A stretch of DNA of 15,061 nt, taken from the NCBI GenBank assembly GCA_048938005.1, contig JBHLMQ010000066.1, positions 1 to 15,061 of the forward strand, read 5' to 3'. The DNA is from Promethearchaeota archaeon. Its GTDB lineage: Archaea > Asgardarchaeota > Lokiarchaeia > Sigyniarchaeales > SOKP01. The notes beneath the pieces are model-generated. The model did not search any database and had not been told where the DNA came from. It saw nothing but the letters and a program-made list of their open reading frames with translations. This document shows, one piece after another, positions 2,491 to 13,770 of this stretch (positions are counted from its first letter, which is position 1; every line of letters begins with the position of its first letter). Position numbers and translations under genes: made by a program.

Positions 2491-3732
2491 ATGGTACAAT
2501 CATTTAAGATTCCTTGGGCAGCATGGTATGGAGATATAGATTTTAATCTTGAATTTCCGGATTCTTGGGATGTAAAAATATTTGGTATGAAAGATGCTGA
2601 TGAAATTTCACAAAAAGAGATTGAAATTGCTATAAATAATCCAATTGGAACTCCCTCACTTATCGAACTGGCTAAAGGAAAGCAAAATGCGATTATCGTT
2701 GTTGAAGATATTTCAAGACCTACTCCAATGGAGAATATCTTAAATATCATTATAAATCAATTAAATTCAGTGGGCATTGAAGATGAGAAAATTACTATCA
2801 TTTATGCGCTTGGTTCACACCGTCCGTTAGATAGAAGGGATTCTATAAAAAAATTGGGATTAAGTATAGTAGATAGGATTAATATCGAAAATCACCATCC
2901 ATATGAAAATCTAATTTATTTGGGTGAATCTAAAATGGGAACTCCCATCTACTTGAATAAAACTTATCATGAAGCTGATCTAAAAATTGCAGTTGGAACC
3001 GTAGTTCCACATCCTTTAGCGGGATATGGTGGTGGAGCTAAAATTATATTACCAGGGATCTGTGGAATCCAAACTCTTGAGGCAAATCATAGAACTGGCG
3101 TCGAGGGCAATGCTGGTGGAATAGGATTTGTAACCGAATTGAGAAAAGACATTGAAGAGGTTTGTGAAAAAGTGGGACTTGATTTTTCGATAAATATTAT
3201 ATCAACAATAAGAAGGGGAATTGCAGGGATTTATGCAGGTCATTTTATTAATGCACATAGGAAAGCAATGGAAATGGGTAAAAAAATATATTCAACTGAA
3301 TTACCACCTAATTTGAATTTGGATATCGGTTTTTTTAACCTATATCCTGAGGATACTGAATTATCTCAAGCTATTAAAGGATTTAATTTCTATTCTAGTA
3401 ACCTTATAAAAAGAGATGGAGCAATTGTATTTCTTACAGCAGCTAGCGAAGGAAGAGGGTTTCATTCATTGCAAGGTGAAACAGGAGGAAAATTGTATCA
3501 GAATTGGGGTAAGTCGACTAAAATTAAATGGCTCTTAAAAAACAGAAAATTTGGAATCTTTTCTCCTAATATCAACAAGTCCGATGTTCTACATTTTTAT
3601 CCCGAAAGAACAATCTTTAGAAACGATTTTAAAGATATGGTAAAACAGCTTGAAAAAATTTATGGGAAATTTCCTAAAGTTGGCATCTTTCCTTGTAGTA
3701 TTCAATTACCAAAAAAGGAAAAAAATACATAA
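2491..3732 (+). CDS. larA: LarA-family nickel-pincer-dependent 2-hydroxyacid racemase/epimerase (substrate uncertain)
   Basis: Motifs NPIGTP, EDISRPTP, ALGSHR, ENHHP, PHPLAGYGGGAKIILPGI, ANH and QAIKG match the LarA (DUF2088) family. Confidence 0.88.
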   Translation: MVQSFKIPWAAWYGDIDFNLEFPDSWDVKIFGMKDADEISQKEIEIAINNPIGTPSLIELAKGKQNAIIVVEDISRPTPMENILNIIINQLNSVGIEDEKITIIYALGSHRPLDRRDSIKKLGLSIVDRINIENHHPYENLIYLGESKMGTPIYLNKTYHEADLKIAVGTVVPHPLAGYGGGAKIILPGICGIQTLEANHRTGVEGNAGGIGFVTELRKDIEEVCEKVGLDFSINIISTIRRGIAGIYAGHFINAHRKAMEMGKKIYSTELPPNLNLDIGFFNLYPEDTELSQAIKGFNFYSSNLIKRDGAIVFLTAASEGRGFHSLQGETGGKLYQNWGKSTKIKWLLKNRKFGIFSPNINKSDVLHFYPERTIFRNDFKDMVKQLEKIYGKFPKVGIFPCSIQLPKKEKNT

Positions 3733-3793: not shown

Positions 3794-5470
3794 TTAAAAT
3801 TCAAGAATCGCCCCTTTTGCTGCAGAAGAAACGAGCTTTTTGTACTTTAAGAGTGCCTTATTTTTAATATCTTTTTCAACTGGTTTCCATTTTTTTAATC
3901 GTTCTTGTATTTCATTATCAGAAATTTCTACTTCAAGAATTCTGTTTGGAATATCAATATTAATTAAATCTCCATCTTTAATTATGGCAAGTGGTCCACC
4001 TACATAAGCTTCTGGGCTTATATGACCAATACATGGACCTGAAGTAGCACCTGAAAAACGTCCATCAGTAATTAAAGCAACACGATCTAAATCACGCTTT
4101 CTCACTAGAGTCATTGTAACAGCTAACATTTCGGGCATACCAGGACCACCTTTTGGACCTTCATACCTAATTATTATTACTGAATCATTTGAAACTTGAT
4201 TTGAAGTTAATGCGTCTATAGCGTCTTGTTCACCATTAAAACATATTGCAGGTCCTTTAAACATTAACATATTTTGATTATTTACAGCTGATTGCTTTAT
4301 TACCGCTCCTTCTGGTGCCAAATTCCCTTTTAAAATCACAGTCCCGCCTTCTGTAAAAAGTGGATTGTTCAATGGTCTTATTACCCTCTCATCTAAAACT
4401 TGAATTTTTCGAATGGATTCTCCAATTTTTTTTCCAGAAACAGTTAAACAATCTAAATGAAGTAAATCTTTTAATCTACATAAAACCGCTGGGATACCTC
4501 CTGCTTTATATAAATCTACAATGCCAAAATCTCCCGATGGAATAACGTTTACTATTGTCGGTATCTTTTTACTATATTCATTAAAAAGTTCCAAATCAAG
4601 ATTAATTCCCATCTCATATGCAATTGCAGGTAAATGTAACGTTGAATTAGTAGATCCTCCAATTGCTAAATCAACCATTATAGCATTTTCTAAAGATTTT
4701 TCGGTCATAATTTGTGAAGGAGTTATTTCTTTTTCTATAAGTTCAATTATTTTTTTTCCTGAATTTTTAGCTATCATATATTTCATTTGAGTCATTGCTG
4801 GAATCGTTGCAGCATTAGGTAAGGTCATTCCAAAAGCCTCCATTAAACATTGAGTGGTATTAGCTGTACCCATCAATTCACAAGCACCGTATGTTGCACA
4901 TGAAATACAACCTATAATATGAGTAGGATCATCATAATTTCTTTGGTTAATTCCTTTATATTCTGGCATGAATCTTACTTCATATAGGTTCGGTCCGCCT
5001 GGAACGCAAATTGTTGGTATATCAAGTCGAACCGCCGCCATCAAAATTGCAGGATTAATTTTATCACAGCTAGAAATTGTAACCATAGCATCAAATTTAT
5101 GGGACTCTACCATTAATTCAATTGAATCCGCGATTATTTCTCTCTGAGGCAAGATATTGCGCATACCTTCAAATCCCATCGCAATCCCATCACAAGGAGC
5201 AACTGTACAGAACTCGAAAGGTACTCCACCTGCCTCAAGAACTCCATATTTTACTGCTTCTGAAAGAATTTGTAAATGTTTATGACCTGGATTAATTTCA
5301 TTCCAAGTATTTACAACTGCAATGAATGGCTTATTATTAATCTCTTCTTCATCTAGACCTAATCCCTTCAATAATTCCAATTTCCCATAATTCATTGGTG
5401 TTTTTTTAATCCCTTCAAAAATACTTTTACTTCTTCTCTTTAAATCAATTTCTTTATCATTCATATTCAT
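3794..5470 (-). CDS. ilvD: IlvD/Edd-family Fe-S dehydratase (dihydroxy-acid or sugar-acid dehydratase)
   Basis: Motifs KPFIAVVN, PGHKHL, CDGIAMG, REIIADSIE, CDKINP, GAC..GTANT, GGSTN..LH, GNLAPEGAVIK, RYEGPKGGPGMPEM, LITDGRFSG and GHISPEA. The start could be 5470 or 5464. Confidence 0.93.
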   Translation of the reverse strand: MNMNDKEIDLKRRSKSIFEGIKKTPMNYGKLELLKGLGLDEEEINNKPFIAVVNTWNEINPGHKHLQILSEAVKYGVLEAGGVPFEFCTVAPCDGIAMGFEGMRNILPQREIIADSIELMVESHKFDAMVTISSCDKINPAILMAAVRLDIPTICVPGGPNLYEVRFMPEYKGINQRNYDDPTHIIGCISCATYGACELMGTANTTQCLMEAFGMTLPNAATIPAMTQMKYMIAKNSGKKIIELIEKEITPSQIMTEKSLENAIMVDLAIGGSTNSTLHLPAIAYEMGINLDLELFNEYSKKIPTIVNVIPSGDFGIVDLYKAGGIPAVLCRLKDLLHLDCLTVSGKKIGESIRKIQVLDERVIRPLNNPLFTEGGTVILKGNLAPEGAVIKQSAVNNQNMLMFKGPAICFNGEQDAIDALTSNQVSNDSVIIIRYEGPKGGPGMPEMLAVTMTLVRKRDLDRVALITDGRFSGATSGPCIGHISPEAYVGGPLAIIKDGDLINIDIPNRILEVEISDNEIQERLKKWKPVEKDIKNKALLKYKKLVSSAAKGAILEF

Positions 5471-5786: not shown

Positions 5787-7508
5787 TCAATTTCTTGAAT
5801 AATTTTCTAATAATTCTTGCTTTCTATTCTTTATACTATCAAAATCATATTTCTGTTCAAAAAAGAAATCAAAAGGATCTTTAATATCATCTAAAAGTGG
5901 TTTTGAATACAAATTTTCATACATGTAATTTCCTTTTTCTGTTATATTTATGTTATCATCATCAATTTGAATTAAAATACCAATATCAATAAGGTTATAA
6001 ATTATAGAACCTATTCCCTCTTCTTTAAATGAGTATAATCCAAAATGAGACAATTCTGTATATATTAAATCTCCTTTTCTTAAGCAATCTTGAAATAATT
6101 GAATCAGCTGCTTATTAGTGAACGTCTTTTGGTTATTATGATAAAGAACAGTAAGGATCCATTTAACAATATATTCCTTAAAATTTTCTTCATAAGTCAT
6201 CTGAAAGCTTCCTAATTCGATACCTTCCTCCTTACTAGTAATAAATTCCTTGAAGATTTCAATAACTTCTTTAAAAATGAAAATACAGATCACTATTGCT
6301 ATAATTGGGTCTAAATAATAGAGAAATGTTGCATTAATAGTCCTCCCAAAATCTGAAAAAAGAGCACCGATAATTATACCAATAGAAATGATTATATTAA
6401 CTCTCGAATCTATAGCACTTGCCACCAATGATGAATTCCTACTCTTTTTTCCAACAAAGTTTTTCAGTGCTCTCATATAGGTATTCAGGAAAATTGATAT
6501 CATAGCTATTATTATAATAATCTGTGTATTTGAAATCTGCTTAGGGCCACGTATTAAGGATTCAATTGAACTGTATAAAAGTGAACCACCAGCAAAACTC
6601 ATTAAACTAATTAAAATTATGTTAACAAGTCTTTCTTTTCTATATTTAATACCGATACCGATTAATACAACAGCGATACAGTCAAGAAAATTCTCAAAAC
6701 CCTCTGCTGTTAAAGATTCAGAATTAAATAATCCTATAAAAATTTTAAGAAGACTTAGTATGAATAATCCGATAAATGATCTTATAAGAACACTACTACT
6801 TGTTAAAATCTTATTGAATTTGGCATTTTGATTATTAAGTGTGTCATTCCAAATTTTTTCTTGCTTTTGACCCTCTTGGTTTAATTTAACTATATTATCA
6901 TTAATATCCGCTAGTCTAAGTCCACATAAATGGTAGATGCTAGAAATAGAAGTTTTTTCATCAAAATATACGTTAGGAATAAAGATATTAAAAGTTCCTT
7001 TTATTTGGTTTTTCAATTCAGAAAATAATAGACTCTTTTGAGGTGATTTTATTAAATTTTCCATTGCAGCATACTCAACTCTATTAATTGGAAATAAATT
7101 TGATTTTCTTCTATGGAATGCTACCGCAACAATTCTGATAAGAGGATTAATAGAAATTAATATTAAAATAATTAATCCTAGGAAAAAAATAAAAAAACTG
7201 GAAGGACTAAATCCTAAGTATCCATTACCCTTAGCTAAAAAATCCGAAATAAAATAGAGTTGCACATAAAAAAAAATAAGAAAAAACATAATCCAAGGAG
7301 TTATTAAGGATCTTACAACCTTTTTTACGTGAAATTGTTTAAAGAAATCATTAATTCCACGCCGAATATAATGTCCCGTGAAGAAAACTCCTATATATGT
7401 AATCCAAAAACTATAAAAAAAAGATTTTAGAAAAACAATTTCAATGATAGAGGAAATTAAAGAGATTAAAACATAAATAATAAGGACTTTTTTAGCGTTT
7501 AGTGTCAT
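5787..7508 (-). CDS. Multidomain membrane protein with a cation diffusion facilitator (CDF)-like transmembrane domain
   Basis: Residues ~240-420 show the CDF pattern: LKIFIGLFNSESLTAEGFENFLD, SSIESLIRGP, GKKSRNSSLVASAIDSRVN, YLDPIIAIVI. There is an extra N-terminal hydrophobic block and two soluble domains. Confidence 0.75.
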   Translation of the reverse strand: MTLNAKKVLIIYVLISLISSIIEIVFLKSFFYSFWITYIGVFFTGHYIRRGINDFFKQFHVKKVVRSLITPWIMFFLIFFYVQLYFISDFLAKGNGYLGFSPSSFFIFFLGLIILILISINPLIRIVAVAFHRRKSNLFPINRVEYAAMENLIKSPQKSLLFSELKNQIKGTFNIFIPNVYFDEKTSISSIYHLCGLRLADINDNIVKLNQEGQKQEKIWNDTLNNQNAKFNKILTSSSVLIRSFIGLFILSLLKIFIGLFNSESLTAEGFENFLDCIAVVLIGIGIKYRKERLVNIILISLMSFAGGSLLYSSIESLIRGPKQISNTQIIIIIAMISIFLNTYMRALKNFVGKKSRNSSLVASAIDSRVNIIISIGIIIGALFSDFGRTINATFLYYLDPIIAIVICIFIFKEVIEIFKEFITSKEEGIELGSFQMTYEENFKEYIVKWILTVLYHNNQKTFTNKQLIQLFQDCLRKGDLIYTELSHFGLYSFKEEGIGSIIYNLIDIGILIQIDDDNINITEKGNYMYENLYSKPLLDDIKDPFDFFFEQKYDFDSIKNRKQELLENYSRN

Positions 7509-7651: not shown

Positions 7652-8434
7652 CTAATTTTTTAAAAATTTGGGATTTAATATTATTTTTACTAATTTATTT
7701 AGAGCTAAATAGCTTTTTGAATTTTCAGAGATATCTATTATTGATTTCCCCATTAATTCTAATTTTGTTATATTATTATCTTCTGGAATTTCCCCCAAAA
7801 GAGGTAATTCAAGATCCCTTATTTTTTTGAGAATATAATCAATGTTTCCTTTAACTCTATTCAAAATAATGCCAAGCTTTTTGTATTTAGTAAATTTCTT
7901 AGCACTTTTACGAATAGCATCGGCAGTTTCAATACTCCTTATTGAAATATCTGAAACAATTAAAACAATATCAACAGTTTCTATTACCATTCTATTGATT
8001 TGCTCAAGTCCGGCTTCACAGTCTATTATGACAATATCAAAATCTTTAGAAATCGATCCTATAACCTTTCGTAAGAGAGTGTTTGAAGGACAGAAACAAC
8101 CGGGGCCCTCGGGTTGCCCTATAGATAATAAACTAAAATTTTTACTTTCAGTTATCGCATTATATACTTGAAAATCAATATTTTTTGCTACTTCTTCGAA
8201 ATTTCTTGCTTTTGTTAATAGTTCATCTATAACTTCTGTTCTTAACTTTTCAAGACTTTTTTCTGGAATTAAATTTACCAGATGACTTAAATGAGGATGA
8301 GCAGGATCTGCATCAATTAATAACATTTTATATTTATAAGTTTTCGAGATACTCTTTGCTAAAAGTGTTGTTATTACTGTCTTACCAGAACCACCTTTTC
8401 CAACAATCGATAATACAAGAGGTTTATTTTCCAA
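7652..8434 (-). CDS. cooC: CooC/AcsF-type nickel-insertion ATPase (MinD/ParA-like)
   Basis: Deviant Walker A GKGGSGKT, LIDADP, the metal-binding GPGCFCP (CxC) motif, IDCEAGLEQINR, ILNRV and IPED. Confidence 0.9.
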   Translation of the reverse strand: MENKPLVLSIVGKGGSGKTVITTLLAKSISKTYKYKMLLIDADPAHPHLSHLVNLIPEKSLEKLRTEVIDELLTKARNFEEVAKNIDFQVYNAITESKNFSLLSIGQPEGPGCFCPSNTLLRKVIGSISKDFDIVIIDCEAGLEQINRMVIETVDIVLIVSDISIRSIETADAIRKSAKKFTKYKKLGIILNRVKGNIDYILKKIRDLELPLLGEIPEDNNITKLELMGKSIIDISENSKSYLALNKLVKIILNPKFLKN

Positions 8435-9191
8435 TTCTTTCTCTCTCCACTAATACTTGTTTAATATTGTAACATTCTTCTTGATAAGGACATATTTCAC
8501 ATCCCCAGTCATATTCGCAATCGATTCTTTTTCTCCATTCATCAATTTTAGCTTTTAATTCTTCTTGAAATTTATTGGTTATTTTTGACGAGATTTCGAT
8601 AAATTCATCTATAGAATCTGGATATGAGCAAATGATAAATATTTCCATTCTTTTTATTAGATTCTTAAATTTCTGTCTATAAAGGTATATTATAGCATTT
8701 GATAAAAATTCGAAAGATATATTCCTATTATATACATCTTTACTAATTCTACACCAAAACCTACGAGGGATAGTTCTTATTGAGAATCCTTCTATTCCGT
8801 TTGATAAGAGATTCAATGATTTCAAATCATAATATATTTTTTTGGACAAGTCCTTAACTCCAATCAAAACAAATAATCCAAAATTAACACTAGATTCTGA
8901 AATTTGATGAATTTCAGGACCTAATATTGTAATATTTCCATCTTCAATTAGGTTTGTCTCAGTAATAGGATATATTAACGAAAAAGAGCGTTTATTCATT
9001 CCACCAAGTTCTAGTTTAGTCTCTTCTTGAAGGATTATTTCTCGATTTTCATCTATTCCTACCTTAATTCCTGAATCCTTGAAAAATCTGATAGGATCAG
9101 AGTTGACTTTATAATTGGTTAATAATTTTCCATTTCTATTCTCTTTAACAACGAAATTCCTAATATTTTTAATTATATCTTCATTCATCAT
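8424..9191 (-). CDS. Acetyl-CoA synthase (AcsB/CdhC) middle-domain-like protein with a C-terminal 4-Cys motif
   Basis: ELGG..SFSL, IEDGNITILGPEI, FGLFVLI, IEGF and WCRISK resemble the ACS central domain. The protein ends with CEYDWGCEICPYQEEC and overlaps cooC by 11 nt. Confidence 0.7.
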   Translation of the reverse strand: MMNEDIIKNIRNFVVKENRNGKLLTNYKVNSDPIRFFKDSGIKVGIDENREIILQEETKLELGGMNKRSFSLIYPITETNLIEDGNITILGPEIHQISESSVNFGLFVLIGVKDLSKKIYYDLKSLNLLSNGIEGFSIRTIPRRFWCRISKDVYNRNISFEFLSNAIIYLYRQKFKNLIKRMEIFIICSYPDSIDEFIEISSKITNKFQEELKAKIDEWRKRIDCEYDWGCEICPYQEECYNIKQVLVERERIGK

Positions 9192-9247
9192 ATTTTACAG
9201 AAAAATCTAATAAGATAACAATGAATTTAATTACAAAATAATTAAAT

Positions 9248-9280
9248 ATTTATAATCTTAAGTAAAATTTACTTTTATAA
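9248..9280. promoter_or_regulatory. Candidate divergent promoter: two TATA-like boxes flanking a palindrome
   Basis: TTATAA at 9250-9255 and 9275-9280 flank AAGTAAA-A-TTTACTT (9260-9274) in the 117-bp gap between divergent genes. Confidence 0.4.
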
Positions 9281-9308
9281 TCAATTTAAATTAAGAAGGA
9301 ACTTTAAT

Positions 9309-9731
9309 ATGATTTCAATACAGGAACCTGAAGACATTATCTCAATAGCGATCCATAATATATTGTCACCTAGAATTAATGATAAAGAATTTTATGATCA
9401 TGTACATAATTGGAATAAGAAAGTTGTAATTGAAATAAAACCCTTTTATCCATTAACCATCATTTTGGAAGGTGATGAAATCCGATTCGAAGTTGGAGAA
9501 ACTAAAGATGCTGATATAAAACTAAAACTCGGGTTACAATCAATGTTGGATGTTGCTTACGGTAGAGAAGACCCAATTCTTGCAGTGCAAAAAGGAATAA
9601 TGGAGTTGCAAGGTTTAGGCGATGACAGCGAAAACTTGGTAAGATTTTATGATATTTTTTTAAATTCTATGCAGAAAGTTGCTAATCAGCCTAATATTAA
9701 CTATCATGAAATAAGTAAAAAAATAAGATAA
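9309..9731 (+). CDS. SCP2 (sterol carrier protein 2)-like lipid-binding domain protein
   Basis: 140 aa. The pattern FEVGETKDADIKLKL..LDVAYGREDPILAVQKGIMELQG matches the SCP2 signature D-P..A...G.+.+.G. Confidence 0.7.
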   Translation: MISIQEPEDIISIAIHNILSPRINDKEFYDHVHNWNKKVVIEIKPFYPLTIILEGDEIRFEVGETKDADIKLKLGLQSMLDVAYGREDPILAVQKGIMELQGLGDDSENLVRFYDIFLNSMQKVANQPNINYHEISKKIR

Positions 9732-9746
9732 AGGGGATAGATATAT

Positions 9747-11225
9747 TTGACACTCATAAAAGAAAGGAACATATTTGAAAAAATAAGTAAAAAAGGTGTT
9801 TATGAGAAACTAGTTGAGATTTTTGGAGAAGAAAACGTTACTGATAAAAAAGTTGATCTATATCCATATTCTTATGATATGACAGAATGTGAACCACATA
9901 TGCCTGATTTTGTGGTTATTCCAGAAAATAGGGATCAACTAATTGAATTAGTTAAGTTTTGTAACTTTAATCTAATCCCTATTGTACCGTATATAAGTGG
10001 TAATAATGTAGGAGGTCTAACTATTCCAGAACAAGGAGGAATTATAGTAGATTTTGGAAAAAAAATGAATAAAATTTTACATATTAATGAAAATATGATG
10101 TATGCTATACTTGAACCTGGTGTAACATTCGGCCAATTAAAAAAATACTTAGATGAGAATTATCCTAATTTGAGATATAGCTATCCTTATGCTCCTCCTT
10201 ATGCTGGGGTAGTTGGGAATGCAATACTTAGTGGAATGAATAGTCTCTCCTGTAAAATTGGATCAATGGGGGATTCTTTAAATGGCTTAGAAGTAATTAC
10301 CGCAGAAGGTGATGTTGTAAGAATAGGATCATGTTTCTATGGTAAAGAGGAATCAGATCCAGATTCGTGGTGGTCTCGTTATCCTATGCCAGACTTGTTA
10401 GGATTGTTTGTGAATTGGCAGGGAATGACAGGATTAGTAACCAAATGCGCGGTTCAATTATGGCCAAATGATCCTTTTCAAAAAGCTTATGTTGCAATTG
10501 TATTTGGATTAACTGATGTCGCAGATGTTCTTAGAGATGTGGGGAAATCTGAAGCTGTAGATGATATGTCAATTTTTAATATTCAAGCAGTCAAATTAAA
10601 TATAGGTATTGAAAATCCTAAAAAATTTCCCGAAGAACCTAATTTTGTAGTTATTATATCAATCTCTGCAAAAACAGAAGATCTTTTTGATGCTAAAAGG
10701 AGATATTTATTCGGAATTATTAATAATTTAAATGAAAAAGGAAAGAAAATGGTTATAGCTGATTTTGATGACTTCTCTAAGTTATTAAGTTTAAAAGTTC
10801 GAGTTGCTTACGATTTACCAGCAGTTCTTTTCGCAACAGTGCCAAAATCTGGGATTACTTGGTTTGGAAGTTATTGTCCAACAAATAAATTTGAAAAATT
10901 AATAGAAAAAATAGACGAGATTTTTCAAAAATATGATTATCATAGCCCTATCATCTATGGCAAGATTATGAAATACGCACATTATGGAATTTTTCGACCG
11001 ATAATTCCCTACGATAAATTCAAGGAAGAAGAAAAAGTACACCAAATGTTAGAAGAAATGACCGATTTTTGTTTGGATTTAGGGTGTATCCCTTATAAAA
11101 CTCCCACTTGGATGACTGCAAAAATGCGTGAGAAAATAAATCCAGGTTGGTTAAAATTATTCGAAAAAATAAAGAATTGTATGGATCCAAATAATATATT
11201 TAATCCAGGAAGGTGGAACACATAA
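9747..11225 (+). CDS. FAD-binding oxidoreductase, VAO/PCMH (GlcD-like) family
   Basis: Motifs YSYD, PDFVVIP, SGNNVGG..PEQGGIIVDF.KMNKIL, EPGVTFGQL, GLEVITAEG.VVRIGS, PDLLGLF..QGMTGLVTK and C-terminal DPNNIFNPG. TTG start preceded by a GGGG purine run. Confidence 0.9.
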   Translation: MTLIKERNIFEKISKKGVYEKLVEIFGEENVTDKKVDLYPYSYDMTECEPHMPDFVVIPENRDQLIELVKFCNFNLIPIVPYISGNNVGGLTIPEQGGIIVDFGKKMNKILHINENMMYAILEPGVTFGQLKKYLDENYPNLRYSYPYAPPYAGVVGNAILSGMNSLSCKIGSMGDSLNGLEVITAEGDVVRIGSCFYGKEESDPDSWWSRYPMPDLLGLFVNWQGMTGLVTKCAVQLWPNDPFQKAYVAIVFGLTDVADVLRDVGKSEAVDDMSIFNIQAVKLNIGIENPKKFPEEPNFVVIISISAKTEDLFDAKRRYLFGIINNLNEKGKKMVIADFDDFSKLLSLKVRVAYDLPAVLFATVPKSGITWFGSYCPTNKFEKLIEKIDEIFQKYDYHSPIIYGKIMKYAHYGIFRPIIPYDKFKEEEKVHQMLEEMTDFCLDLGCIPYKTPTWMTAKMREKINPGWLKLFEKIKNCMDPNNIFNPGRWNT

Positions 11226-12404
11226 ATGGTTGAAATTGATAAGAGTTTAATGGGAAAAGAATTCCTAGAAATGGCATTTGACAATTGTATTAAATGTAGT
11301 ACTTGTAAGTATGGTTATAAGAGTTTTGATAAAATTTGCCCTTCAGGTGAAAAATTCTTATTTGAATCATATTGGGCTTCAGGGAGGATAAGAACAATAA
11401 GAGGATTATTGCTCGGAGATTTGGAATGGAATGAAGATCTTAAAGATCCAATATTTGCATGTTCTACCTGTGGTGCTTGCATGGATTCTTGTCAAGCCCC
11501 CCATGCGGATTATATTGTTGATATGATTGAAGCGCTCAGGGAATTGGCAGTAAAAAATATTGGGCCAGCAAAAAATCAAGAATTTTTAGTCTCACGATGC
11601 GAAGAAAGTTGTAACCCCTACGGAGAACCTAATTCCGATAATCAAGAATTAAAAAAGAAATATGATTTACCAGATAAAGCAGAGTGGGTATACTATATAG
11701 GATGCACATCAAATTATCGTCAACAAAACCTCCGAGATTCAACAATAAGATTTCTTAAAAAAGTCGGTATTAATTTTACATTAATTGATGAACATTGCTG
11801 TACAAGTCCAATGATAAGAACTGGTCAAATTAATATTTGTAAAGATTATATGAATTACAATGTCGCACAAATAATGAAAACAGAGGCTAAAAGTGTAATA
11901 ACTTCATGCGCTGGGTGTTATAGAACACTTAAGAAAGATTTTAAGAGATTTGGAGAAGAATATGATTTTGAGGTATTCCATACAATAGAGTTAGTAAAAA
12001 GATTAATAGATGAAGGGAAATTAAAGTTCAAGTCAGAATACAATAAAACAGTTACTTATCATGATCCATGCCATCTGGGTCGACACATGGGAATTTATGA
12101 AATTCCAAGAGAAATTTACAGGAAAATTCCCGGTCTCAAATTAGTAGAAATGAGAAGAAATCGGAATTTTGCGTGGTGTTGTGGTGCGGGAGGGGGAATC
12201 AAAATTGGATATCCAGAATGGGCAATAGAAGTTTCAAAAGAAAGATTAGAGGAAGCTAAAGAAACTGGTGCAACTGTAATATCTTCAACTTGCCCATTTT
12301 GTAGAACAAATTTAAGTGATGCTAATGAAAACTATAATATCGAAATGGAAGTTCTTGATTTAATGGAGATTATCGATCAGTTAGATATCGAAGTTAAGGA
12401 TTAG
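11226..12404 (+). CDS. Fe-S oxidoreductase with 2x[4Fe-4S] and two CCG domains (GlcF/HdrD-like)
   Basis: Ferredoxin motifs CIKCSTC..CP and CSTCGACMDSC; CCG domains GC..CCTSP..SCAGC and YHDPCHLGR..CCGAGGG..CPFC. The ATG directly follows the upstream TAA. Confidence 0.92.
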   Translation: MVEIDKSLMGKEFLEMAFDNCIKCSTCKYGYKSFDKICPSGEKFLFESYWASGRIRTIRGLLLGDLEWNEDLKDPIFACSTCGACMDSCQAPHADYIVDMIEALRELAVKNIGPAKNQEFLVSRCEESCNPYGEPNSDNQELKKKYDLPDKAEWVYYIGCTSNYRQQNLRDSTIRFLKKVGINFTLIDEHCCTSPMIRTGQINICKDYMNYNVAQIMKTEAKSVITSCAGCYRTLKKDFKRFGEEYDFEVFHTIELVKRLIDEGKLKFKSEYNKTVTYHDPCHLGRHMGIYEIPREIYRKIPGLKLVEMRRNRNFAWCCGAGGGIKIGYPEWAIEVSKERLEEAKETGATVISSTCPFCRTNLSDANENYNIEMEVLDLMEIIDQLDIEVKD

Positions 12405-12441: not shown

Positions 12442-13143
12442 TTAATTCGGATACAACTCAATTTTACGTCCTTTTCTTGTTAAACTTATTAAATTTTCTT
12501 CAGATAACTTATCAATATGATACTTAATAGTATTACGAGAAAGATTTAAGACTCGAGATATATCAGAAGAATTAATTCCAGGATTTTCTTGGATTATATT
12601 TAGAATTTCTGAAGTCGTTTTTGATTTTATGATTAGATTTTTGAAGTTATCTTTTGATTCAAATGAAGAAGTAATTGGAAAATAAATTGTATATTGCCCA
12701 TATTTTTCTTTCTTTATAATATGATATTTTAATAAAACATCTAAATGCCATTGCAATTGACCTTTCTGCAAATCGCAGCTTCGTAACAATTCATTATGAT
12801 GTATTCCTGGATTATTGAGAATTTGCTTTAATATATTTAAACGATTTTCATTTTCAAATATTTCTGTAACTGTAAGATAAGATCTCCCTTTTTTAATATG
12901 GGTTTTTCTTATAAAGTACCCTCTATATTCTTTTATTGATAACACTTCAAAAATAGAAAATAATAAAATTGATGCTATTAAAAGAGAAATAATGACTATC
13001 CCTACTGTAATTGCTTCGTTAATCCCAAAAAATAAATCATATAAGTTAATTAGCTGATATAGAGTAACTGATAATAAAATAAGAGAAAAAATGATTAGTG
13101 TGAATTTTACCAAAATAAGGCGATTATATTTTTTACCTTGCAT
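12442..13143 (-). CDS. Membrane-anchored transcriptional regulator with tandem winged helix-turn-helix domains
   Basis: Two N-terminal hydrophobic helices, then two similar wHTH units: ILKQILNNPGIHHNEL..LQWHLDVL and ILNIIQENPGINSSDI..IKYHIDKL. Confidence 0.88.
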   Translation of the reverse strand: MQGKKYNRLILVKFTLIIFSLILLSVTLYQLINLYDLFFGINEAITVGIVIISLLIASILLFSIFEVLSIKEYRGYFIRKTHIKKGRSYLTVTEIFENENRLNILKQILNNPGIHHNELLRSCDLQKGQLQWHLDVLLKYHIIKKEKYGQYTIYFPITSSFESKDNFKNLIIKSKTTSEILNIIQENPGINSSDISRVLNLSRNTIKYHIDKLSEENLISLTRKGRKIELYPN

Positions 13144-13176
13144 TTTAATAATAAACTTCTTTTCGACAATTGAAAA

Positions 13177-13770
13177 TTAGTCTTTTTCGATTTTATTTCT
13201 TTTTAATTTTAAGAATGGAAACATAAAAGATACATTATTGGCATAGGCTAAAAATTCATCTCCATATTTAGCTTTTAGGGCAAAATCTTCGATCTTTCCT
13301 AAAAATATGTAAGCTATAACCTCCGCCACCCAAATAAAAAATATAATAGTATAACCATTCATATCAAATAAATTAAAATTGAAAACTGGACTAGTTTGAA
13401 AAGATATTAAAGTCAGGCCAAATGTCATAATAATAAATGCTAAATATTGAGGATGTCTCATATATCTATATGGTCCGCTTTGAATCAATTGTTTTCTATG
13501 AGTTAATTGATATATAAGCGAGTAAATGTAAAAAATGAAACCAAATAATGTAAAATAAATTCCAGGATTTCTAAACATAAATCTAAGATCATAGAATAGA
13601 ATCCCAGGATTTTGAAAGAAGAAAGCTAAATAACTTATTAGTGGCACACTCATTATACCCATCCAAATAGCTGTGCAAGGTACATATTGGAAAATTGGAA
13701 TTAGGAAAGAAGAAATACTTGTAGAAATTGAAGCTATTTTATTTTTATTCTTATTTTTCTTAAGATTCAT
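13177..13770 (-). CDS. Isoprenylcysteine carboxyl methyltransferase / PEMT family membrane protein
   Basis: LIQSGPYRYMRHPQY and ED..LKAKYGDEF..Y..V..MFP motifs; several TM segments. Confidence 0.85.
   Translation of the reverse strand: MNLKKNKNKNKIASISTSISSFLIPIFQYVPCTAIWMGIMSVPLISYLAFFFQNPGILFYDLRFMFRNPGIYFTLFGFIFYIYSLIYQLTHRKQLIQSGPYRYMRHPQYLAFIIMTFGLTLISFQTSPVFNFNLFDMNGYTIIFFIWVAEVIAYIFLGKIEDFALKAKYGDEFLAYANNVSFMFPFLKLKRNKIEKD

Follow-up and report, generated by a model that had tools for sequence, protein, structure and literature searches.

An acetyl-CoA synthase-derived small protein and its CooC-type ATPase: a proposed accessory pair of acyl-CoA radical enzymes and hydroxy-acid dehydrogenases

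Acetyl-CoA synthase (ACS) and the CooC/AcsF maturases are regarded as specialised parts of Wood-Ljungdahl CO2 fixation. What, then, does a short ACS-like protein do when it is encoded together with a CooC-type ATPase on a contig that carries no gene for ACS or carbon monoxide dehydrogenase (CODH)? The question is raised by an Asgard archaeal genome (~30% GC, 95% complete), in which the entire 15,061-nt contig C7 constitutes the window analyzed here. On the reverse strand of this window lie the gene for a 255-amino-acid protein, hereafter called mini-ACS, and the gene for its ATPase partner. We propose that mini-ACS is an ACS-derived, CoA-binding Fe-S protein whose site is loaded or repaired by its own CooC-type ATPase, and that it is accessory to HGD-D-type radical enzymes, which belong to the benzoyl-CoA reductase/2-hydroxyacyl-CoA dehydratase family, and to GlcD-CCG enzymes, in which a GlcD-like flavoenzyme goes with a CCG Fe-S subunit; we give this proposal an even chance. 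The pair is laid out as follows.

8424..9191, reverse strand: mini-ACS, 255 amino acids, ATG start; A2 (CoA-binding) domain with an N-terminal extension and a C-terminal cysteine loop (AlphaFold pLDDT 91.5)
8472..8519, reverse strand: cysteine motif C225-x5-C231-x2-C234-x5-C240 of mini-ACS, a putative [4Fe-4S] or metal site by conservation
8748..8756, reverse strand: W146-C147-R148 of mini-ACS; W146 falls on Trp405 of C. autoethanogenum ACS by alignment
7652..8434, reverse strand: CooC/AcsF-family P-loop ATPase, 260 amino acids, TTG start (sequence matches, CxC aligned on CooC1)
8378..8401, reverse strand: deviant Walker A G12-K-G-G-S-G-K-T19 of the ATPase, from the translation
8090..8098, reverse strand: C113-F-C115, CxC metal-binding motif of the ATPase, by alignment to CooC1 (3kje)
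8424..8434, reverse strand: 11-nt overlap of the mini-ACS 3' end with the TTG start of the ATPase, from the open reading frame (ORF) coordinates
9192..9308, no strand: AT-rich divergent spacer of 117 nt; promoter region for both units by ORF layout only

A sequence-only reading of the window had described the mini-ACS ORF as complete, as overlapping an intact CxC-type cooC gene and as heading its transcription unit. The 255-codon frame, the 11-nt overlap and the CxC are all present, and because the gene upstream, which is SCP2-like, lies on the opposite strand across the 117-nt spacer, mini-ACS does head its unit by layout. The same overlapping arrangement of the two genes recurs at loci L004, L018, L019 and L033.

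An A2 domain that ends in a cysteine loop

Sequence and predicted fold both relate mini-ACS to ACS alone and, within it, to the middle domain only, as the sequence-only reading had suggested. Pfam finds a single match, CdhC (PF03598; residues 49-188, E 2.2e-14, 54 bits against a cut-off of 24), and the NCBIfam cdhC/AcsB models place residues 39-234 on positions 4-194 of the 464-position CdhC model. A sequence search of the PDB returned 15 matches, all 15 of them ACS, and a family profile sets residues 49-213 on approximately 328-493 of bacterial ACS. The genome's own CdhC, a protein of 479 amino acids, is recognized by profile-profile alignment of the family (hhalign probability 99.4, mini-ACS 38-218 on CdhC 4-185) and by BLASTP (E 9e-12, 26% identity). 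The AlphaFold model (pLDDT 91.5, pTM 0.82) was built from a 133-sequence alignment and replaced an earlier one from 26 Asgard sequences that was poor in the cysteine region (pLDDT 70.7). In a Foldseek search against the PDB, each of the 23 matches at E<=0.001 is an ACS (best E 4.2e-11, TM-score by query 0.5-0.6), and the next match has an E of 0.4.

The nickel-binding A-cluster region of ACS is missing, again as first described. At E<=0.01 the Pfam scan finds no mini-ACS match to the A3 domain (PF19436), which the genome's true CdhC carries in addition to PF03598 and matches at 4.9e-72; mini-ACS stops 15 residues past C240. Nor does a Cys-Gly-Cys, the motif that binds two nickel ions in ACS, occur anywhere in its 255 residues. 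Lacking both the A3 domain and this motif, mini-ACS cannot be an acetyl-CoA synthase. At the opposite end of the protein, the first ~36-48 residues have no counterpart in archaeal CdhC. The family profile aligns residues 1-48 (9048-9191) to 259-310 of C. autoethanogenum ACS, the end of domain A1, and this sequence alignment hints at a descent of mini-ACS from bacterial-type ACS.

A protein that covers just the first ~195 positions of the CdhC model could be a decaying cdhC fragment or half of a split ACS. The extent of the family makes this hardly credible. At E<=0.001 a homolog search returned 418 proteins; its 120 top-ranked matches are 253-278 amino acids long and 53-83% identical, with Promethearchaeota, Hodarchaeota, Thorarchaeota and Lokiarchaeota named among these 120. 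When representatives at 50% identity were searched exhaustively, 287 clusters passed E<=0.001 and 133 of them E<=1e-10; short proteins make up all of the top 150 of the 287, with no full ACS among them, and PF03598 is matched by 131 of the 133 diverse members that we aligned. A profile of the non-Asgard members brought in 608 further clusters at E<=1e-10, some of them from Chloroflexi or Dehalococcoidia under the name 'carbon monoxide dehydrogenase', and in the ESM Atlas mini-ACS-like clusters of 239-247 amino acids are commonest in Bacillota. Mini-ACS is a large family of proteins of ~240-280 amino acids found in Asgard archaea, Chloroflexota and Bacillota. Within the phylum, the gene is present in 59 of 301 sampled genomes (51 of 68 in the window genome's own family) and is nearly always single-copy. 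On a tree of 42 mini-ACS sequences, which includes four bacterial outgroups, leaves out the partial loci L023, L035, L039 and L041 and is midpoint-rooted for drawing, the Asgard copies group together in a separate clade.

With hundreds of full-length relatives of the same size that keep invariant cysteines, a decaying cdhC fragment is ruled out. One piece of a split ACS, an option that the sequence-only reading had raised, is unsupported because a PF19436 search of the 95%-complete genome matches only the true CdhC, leaving no orphan A3 domain; an intact CdhC of 479 amino acids is encoded elsewhere in the genome. A search for longer, fused forms containing A2 gave two matches, both to true-ACS-type proteins of 597 amino acids, which is weak evidence.

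Upon leaving the A2 domain, the chain enters a loop that holds four of the six cysteines of mini-ACS (positions 147, 188, 225, 231, 234 and 240), spaced as C225-x5-C231-x2-C234-x5-C240 when counted on the translation, just as the sequence-only reading had it. Their conservation stands for three of the four: C231, C234 and C240 are found in 133 of 133 diverse members, and C225 varies (107 of 133), one branch of the family having Cx2Cx5C only. Among close homologs all four are invariant (121 of 121), and C147 is present in 119 of 121.

The motif had been placed roughly where the A-cluster domain would begin. That position holds, with the refinement that mini-ACS extends a few residues into the would-be A3. 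BLASTP against the genome's CdhC sets the mini-ACS stretch 'WGCEIC' on 'YGCVLC', the first CxxC of the A-cluster cubane motif, and phmmer against C. hydrogenoformans ACS places the CxxC in the same way, ending at chain index 512 of 1ru3_A with low posterior values. A positional equivalence of C231-x2-C234 with the first two cubane cysteines is moderately supported by these alignments. The spacing of the remaining ligands differs: CdhC of this genome has C-x2-C-x8-C-x9-C, whereas in mini-ACS the third cysteine follows at x5 and the fourth lies upstream.

Proteins with like-spaced cysteines suggest what such a loop could bind. One study (PMC11729352) describes in E. coli RseC a CX5CX2CX5C motif in which the last three cysteines are conserved and which forms an O2-sensitive cluster with a [4Fe-4S]-like band at 420 nm, and another (PMC5462746) describes [4Fe-4S] binding by Cys-X2-Cys-X5-Cys and a distant fourth cysteine in WhiB-like proteins. 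The spacing in RseC/RnfF is identical to that in mini-ACS, down to the poorly conserved upstream fourth cysteine in RseC, and WhiB-like proteins share the Cx2Cx5C part. The analogy is one of spacing only, the three being unrelated in sequence and fold and the surrounding domains different. The loop, which lies where the [4Fe-4S] part of the A-cluster would start, most likely holds an oxygen-sensitive [4Fe-4S] cluster, possibly together with an extra metal.

The second putative site of mini-ACS is that for CoA. According to a preprint on C. autoethanogenum CODH/ACS (10.1101/2024.08.05.606187), acetyl-CoA is bound mainly by domain A2, its adenine is stacked on Trp405, and Arg383, His386 and Gly399 lie near the acetyl group. 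Counting 6ytt_A along our family alignment puts R, H, G and W exactly at 383, 386, 399 and 405, which confirms the residue numbering. In this alignment Trp405 becomes W146 of mini-ACS and Arg407 becomes R148, and both are kept across the diverse members (W146 in 128 of 133, R148 in 126 of 133), consistent with a CoA-binding function.

The CooC-type ATPase and its predicted complex with mini-ACS

The best solved relative of the partner ATPase is CooC1 (3kje, E 3.8e-14), followed by MinD (9.3e-10), and its G-C113-F-C115-P aligns on the CxC of CooC1. The protein also matches CbiA and, weakly, NifH-family models (Fer4_NifH, E 2.4e-11, full length). For comparison, partner ATPases were taken as full-length ORFs that passed length filters. 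The sequence G-C-[FY]-C-P-x-N occurs in every one of the 80 (32 Asgard, 48 metagenome). Only the 48 metagenome proteins count as a test, because selection of the Asgard proteins also involved a pattern requiring CxC, which makes their count circular. In the alignment of these proteins, Walker A residues G12, K13, G14, G15, G17 and K18 are invariant, and the CxC pair provides the sole invariant cysteines.

Three other CxC-type CooC paralogs, 30-33% identical to the partner ATPase, were found by searching the genome (contig C97, 69440-70210; C12, 1675-2412; C9, 18140-18898), and their contigs carry no CODH- or ACS-family match. In the C97 paralog the search flagged one in-frame TGA; reading the ORF gives an intact frame of 258 amino acids, so the TGA probably lies outside the gene.

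The ATPase gene is a nearly constant companion of mini-ACS. It follows directly in 34 of 39 Asgard genome loci, the exceptions being L036, where the locus ends 160 nt past the gene, and L007, L010, L014 and L023, which have no ATPase within 5 kb downstream. From metagenomes, 219 loci were confirmed and 80 kept, 76 of them with a match ORF (that of L113 is mis-called), and the ATPase comes next in 55 of the 56 with at least 700 nt downstream. These metagenome loci are 55-86% identical to the query and therefore represent one related branch, which is bacterial and Chloroflexota-like.

The two proteins are also predicted to form a complex. Co-folding, which the sequence-only reading had proposed as a check, passed its controls with an ipSAE interface score of 0.68 (runs of 0.68, 0.68 and 0.71) against 0.20 for the best of three controls; of 157 solved complexes 116 attain this mark, as do 2 of 215 mismatched pairs, counts that are approximate because the alignments were our own. 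The runs share at least 90% of their contacts, and the pLDDT of the partner is at least 83. In the model, the confident interface comprises residues 79-101 and 115-133 of the ATPase, including C115-P116-S117, and residues 50-55, 125-131, 138-146 (with R139 and W146) and 238-253 (with C240) of mini-ACS. The prediction supports binding between mini-ACS and the ATPase but stops short of proof. We know of no solved CooC-ACS complex.

These results bear on the idea that mini-ACS is a CoA or acyl-CoA sensor that tunes adjacent enzymes or transport, with its cysteines binding structural zinc. It would account for the retained CoA-stacking tryptophan, a zinc site could be built from the four closely spaced cysteines of the loop, and 11 of the 39 Asgard loci have a gene for a helix-turn-helix (HTH) regulator close to the pair. 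We nevertheless consider it very unlikely, as Pfam finds no DNA-binding or signalling domain in mini-ACS and structural zinc would not need a dedicated, conserved CooC-type ATPase that is predicted to bind it. Of the options in the sequence-only reading, a metal or Fe-S module with a dedicated ATPase gains from the conserved cysteines, the gene pair and the co-fold, a maturation scaffold keeps some weight as an alternative, the split ACS falls away, and a CoA-binding regulator found no specific support.

Genomic company of the pair

As the sequence-only reading had stated, Pfam and NCBIfam find no CODH or ACS gene nearby; since the window is the whole 15,061-nt contig, 'nearby' here extends no further than the contig. 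The true CdhC of the genome lies on contig C31, and Prismane/CODH-family matches lie on C46, C17 and C26. Genes for CODH, corrinoid Fe-S protein (CFeSP) or ACS are absent both from the window and from the neighbours that could be named at the 39 Asgard and 76 metagenome loci. The conserved ATPase partner and the lack of CODH/ACS genes thus stood; the context that the earlier reading had missed is that of HGD-D and GlcD-CCG. In the window, the latter faces the pair across the divergent spacer, and a transporter gene follows the ATPase.

9309..12404, forward strand: divergent unit of SCP2-like, GlcD-like FAD oxidase and CCG protein genes (this and the next four by Pfam and NCBIfam)
9309-9731, forward strand: SCP2-like gene
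9747-11225, forward strand: GlcD-like FAD oxidase
11226-12404, forward strand: CCG/TfrB-HdrD-like Fe-S protein; best model the thiol:fumarate reductase subunit TfrB, below cut-off (213 against 385 bits)
5787..7508, reverse strand: cation-diffusion-facilitator (CDF) transporter, 573 amino acids, starting 143 nt after the ATPase gene and co-directional with it

Across the 39 Asgard loci, the neighbours are a CCG protein in 31, a GlcD-like flavoenzyme in 28, HGD-D in 18, SCP2 in 7 and, downstream of the ATPase, a CDF transporter in 7. Most of the loci with HGD-D (14 of 18) have the co-directional order HGD-D, HGD-D, GlcD', CCG', mini-ACS, ATPase; the other four (L007, L010, L014 and L040) have a divergent cassette of two HGD-D genes and BcrAD_BadFG, confirmed by Pfam on L014. 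The HGD-D proteins that neighbour mini-ACS match the double-cubane reductase, benzoyl-CoA reductase (BCR) and 2-hydroxyacyl-CoA dehydratase (HAD) models, all below cut-off. The layout of the window, in which mini-ACS and the ATPase diverge from SCP2, GlcD-like and CCG genes, is found in 7 of 39 loci and at no fewer than three places on the 42-sequence tree, including the deepest Asgard branch. Elsewhere in the window genome (contig C65, 3326-9301), the orthologous cassette of HGD-D, HGD-D and BcrAD_BadFG converges with a second CCG'/GlcD' pair without mini-ACS. Other Asgard genomes have mini-ACS within this very arrangement, and the position of the cassette next to CCG'/GlcD' indicates that the three modules stay associated throughout the group in spite of rearrangement.

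The bacterial-type operon is co-directional and consists of two HGD-D genes (PF06050), a BcrAD_BadFG ATPase (PF01869), mini-ACS and the CooC-like ATPase. Of the metagenome loci, 33 have 3.5 kb or more of upstream sequence; every one of these carries HGD-D there, and 30 of them carry BcrAD_BadFG. Around these operons we find genes for acyl-CoA dehydrogenase, enoyl-CoA hydratase, ChsH2-type, CoA-ligase-type and CoA-transferase proteins.

HGD-D enzymes need ATP-driven reduction, and the pair could be the device that supplies it. By the logic of the nitrogenase iron protein, an ATPase dimer would use ATP hydrolysis to drive low-potential electrons via the cluster of mini-ACS to the HGD-D or CCG enzyme. 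The full-length match of the ATPase to the NifH family (Fer4_NifH, E 2.4e-11) is in line with such an electron-injection module, as is the commonest Asgard layout, which has no BcrAD_BadFG activator within the 5-kb flank. However, an Asgard activator could sit just beyond the flanks, 30 of 33 bacterial loci already have one, and the motif of the ATPase is the CxC of CooC rather than the cluster ligands of NifH. We therefore regard this explanation as rather improbable.

A stronger, though still unlikely, alternative is that the pair is a maturation machine, in which mini-ACS would be a transient scaffold or adaptor for a metal or Fe-S unit that is passed on to HGD-D, including its double-cubane type, or to CCG clusters. 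CooC-family ATPases are metal insertases, and CooC1 is the best solved match of the partner. One pair stands against 11 HGD-D matches in the genome, and some metagenome operons have two HGD-D pairs with a single mini-ACS/ATPase pair. The match of adjacent HGD-D proteins to the double-cubane reductase model, below cut-off as it is, and the CDF metal transporter gene after the ATPase in the window and in 7 of 39 Asgard loci point the same way. On the other hand, a scaffold would have no need of the family-wide tryptophan and arginine of the CoA site, orphan copies of mini-ACS adjoin HGD-D cassettes without an ATPase, and, to our knowledge, the well-studied HGD-D enzymes mature without such a pair.

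The orphan copies occur in some Asgard genomes that have two mini-ACS paralogs, one with the ATPase and one without (L007, L010, L014 and L023; L139 and L140). The orphan gene is divergent from a cassette of two HGD-D and BcrAD_BadFG and is followed by the gene for a CxxCxxCC (PF03692) protein of 132 amino acids. The genomes of L007, L010 and L014 each have an orthologous ATPase elsewhere, 63-65% identical, and in genomes G302 and G303 the sole orthologous ATPase adjoins the second mini-ACS, the ATPase-less copy lying directly beside the HGD-D cassette. This pattern fits a relationship in which the ATPase serves mini-ACS and mini-ACS serves the enzyme.

Proposed role, related systems and remaining window genes

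We thus favour mini-ACS as a CoA-binding Fe-S accessory protein with its own ATPase. In this mechanism, the ATPase would dock on the face of mini-ACS that carries the cysteine loop and the CoA site, and would spend ATP to load or repair the metal site there, by analogy with the action of AcsF on ACS. Once loaded, mini-ACS would be a redox-active accessory that binds CoA or acyl-CoA, and its clients would be the enzymes encoded adjacently, the HGD-D-type radical enzymes and the GlcD-CCG 2-hydroxyacid dehydrogenases. The setting would be 2-hydroxyacid/acyl-CoA fermentation rather than CO metabolism. The CDF gene downstream of the ATPase is possibly part of the same unit and may provide a link to metal supply.

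A number of observations weigh against this proposal. With respect to the cluster, the cysteine loop is the weakest stretch of the model (block mean pLDDT 58-84), and the position of C225 is gapped in 26 of 133 diverse members, in which the fourth cysteine is missing or aligned elsewhere. The hhalign alignment ends at residue 218, ahead of the cysteines, and the CxxC equivalence consequently rests on the low-posterior ends of pairwise alignments. With respect to CoA, Arg383 and His386 of ACS, which are proposed to act on the acetyl and thiol groups, are replaced by K124 and N127 in mini-ACS and are variable across the family. W146 itself falls in the predicted ATPase interface, and its conservation may therefore reflect docking instead of CoA binding. 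The co-fold was computed at 1:1 stoichiometry, and CooC proteins act as dimers. With respect to the clients, the pair in the window is not beside HGD-D, the 11 HGD-D matches of the genome being on other contigs, and GlcD/CCG are not among the recurrent neighbours in the bacterial set, so that no single client enzyme is common to all contexts. Finally, the sampled loci are relatives and cannot be counted as independent.

The metal site could even be a minimal A-cluster-like center, a possibility that we consider quite improbable. In ACS, the cysteine equivalent to C234 bridges cubane and nickel. In mini-ACS, a [4Fe-4S] cubane would accordingly be bridged by C234 to a nickel delivered by the ATPase, with a partner protein or the thiol of bound CoA filling the remaining coordination, which would give the HGD-D or GlcD-CCG enzymes an organometallic or thioester step. 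Such a step could be the transfer of an acyl group to CoA or, at the CCG clusters, redox chemistry of the CoA thiol. If true, this would be a second use of ACS chemistry, outside the Wood-Ljungdahl pathway.

The comparison with ACS itself (bacterial AcsB/ACS with A1-A3, archaeal CdhC with A2-A3; PF03598 and PF19436) shows what has been kept and what has been lost. Mini-ACS shares the fold and sequence of A2, the adenine-stacking tryptophan, a CxxC at the first two cubane ligands and a CooC/AcsF-type ATPase as partner. By contrast, it lacks A3, the Cys-Gly-Cys, Arg383 and His386, its third cysteine is at x5 and not x8 and its fourth is upstream and not downstream, and CODH, CFeSP and other Wood-Ljungdahl genes are never beside it in the loci examined. 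Similarly, the partner ATPase has the deviant Walker A and the CxC of CooC1/AcsF (3kje and related proteins) and adjoins an ACS-derived protein; it differs in its own invariant G-C-[FY]-C-P-x-N and in a presumed client without a nickel site of known type. A further parallel exists with the BCR/2-hydroxyacyl-CoA dehydratase/double-cubane systems, which occur in the same operons as the pair and whose activator likewise combines an ATPase with a cysteine-ligated cluster, the latter a candidate feature of the pair. That activator is of the ASKHA type, with a fold unrelated to either protein of the pair, and in 30 of 33 bacterial loci the pair comes in addition to it.

A literature search, from which subscription-only papers and supplements were excluded, gave no description of the mini-ACS family or of a CooC/ACS-domain pair in BCR/HAD operons. 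Nor are we aware that a CooC-type ATPase or an ACS domain has been assigned a function in HGD-D systems. The family represents the stable recruitment of a stripped-down ACS domain, along with its own maturase-type ATPase, into the company of ATP-driven acyl-CoA radical enzymes and, in Asgard archaea, of flavin/CCG hydroxy-acid dehydrogenases. What is new here is the Asgard GlcD-CCG/SCP2 context, the order HGD-D-HGD-D-GlcD'-CCG'-mini-ACS-ATPase, the orphan-paralog pattern and a co-fold that passed its controls, combined with the mapping of residues to acetyl-CoA-bound ACS. If mini-ACS does bind CoA and a cluster, a component has been overlooked in enzymes that are central to the anaerobic degradation of amino acids and aromatics, with relevance also to models of Asgard fermentation. 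Being small and cleanly defined, it also offers a simple system for how a CooC-type ATPase recognizes an ACS domain and delivers metal. Genes of the family are widely labelled 'CO dehydrogenase/acetyl-CoA synthase beta subunit' and can thus falsely signal carbon fixation.

The other window genes that were assigned by Pfam, NCBIfam or best model are the following.

1-1596: two CoA-transferase subunits (Pfam, NCBIfam)
1650-2435: alpha/beta hydrolase (Pfam, NCBIfam)
2491-3732: LarA-like nickel-pincer 2-hydroxyacid racemase; best model the malate racemase LarAH6, 248 bits against a cut-off of 500
3794-5470: IlvD (Pfam, NCBIfam)
12442-13770, reverse strand: double winged-helix regulator (HVO_0163-type N-terminal HTH and HTH_24) paired with an ICMT-like membrane methyltransferase

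The CoA-transferase, LarA-like and IlvD genes fit a 2-hydroxyacid/acyl-CoA theme. Genes of these types are close to the pair in just 2-6 of 39 Asgard loci, LarA in only 3 of them. The CDF transporter at 5787-7508 has an N-terminal extension of ~240 amino acids without a Pfam match. In 10-11 of 39 Asgard loci, the regulator and the ICMT-like methyltransferase again occur together close to mini-ACS and its ATPase.

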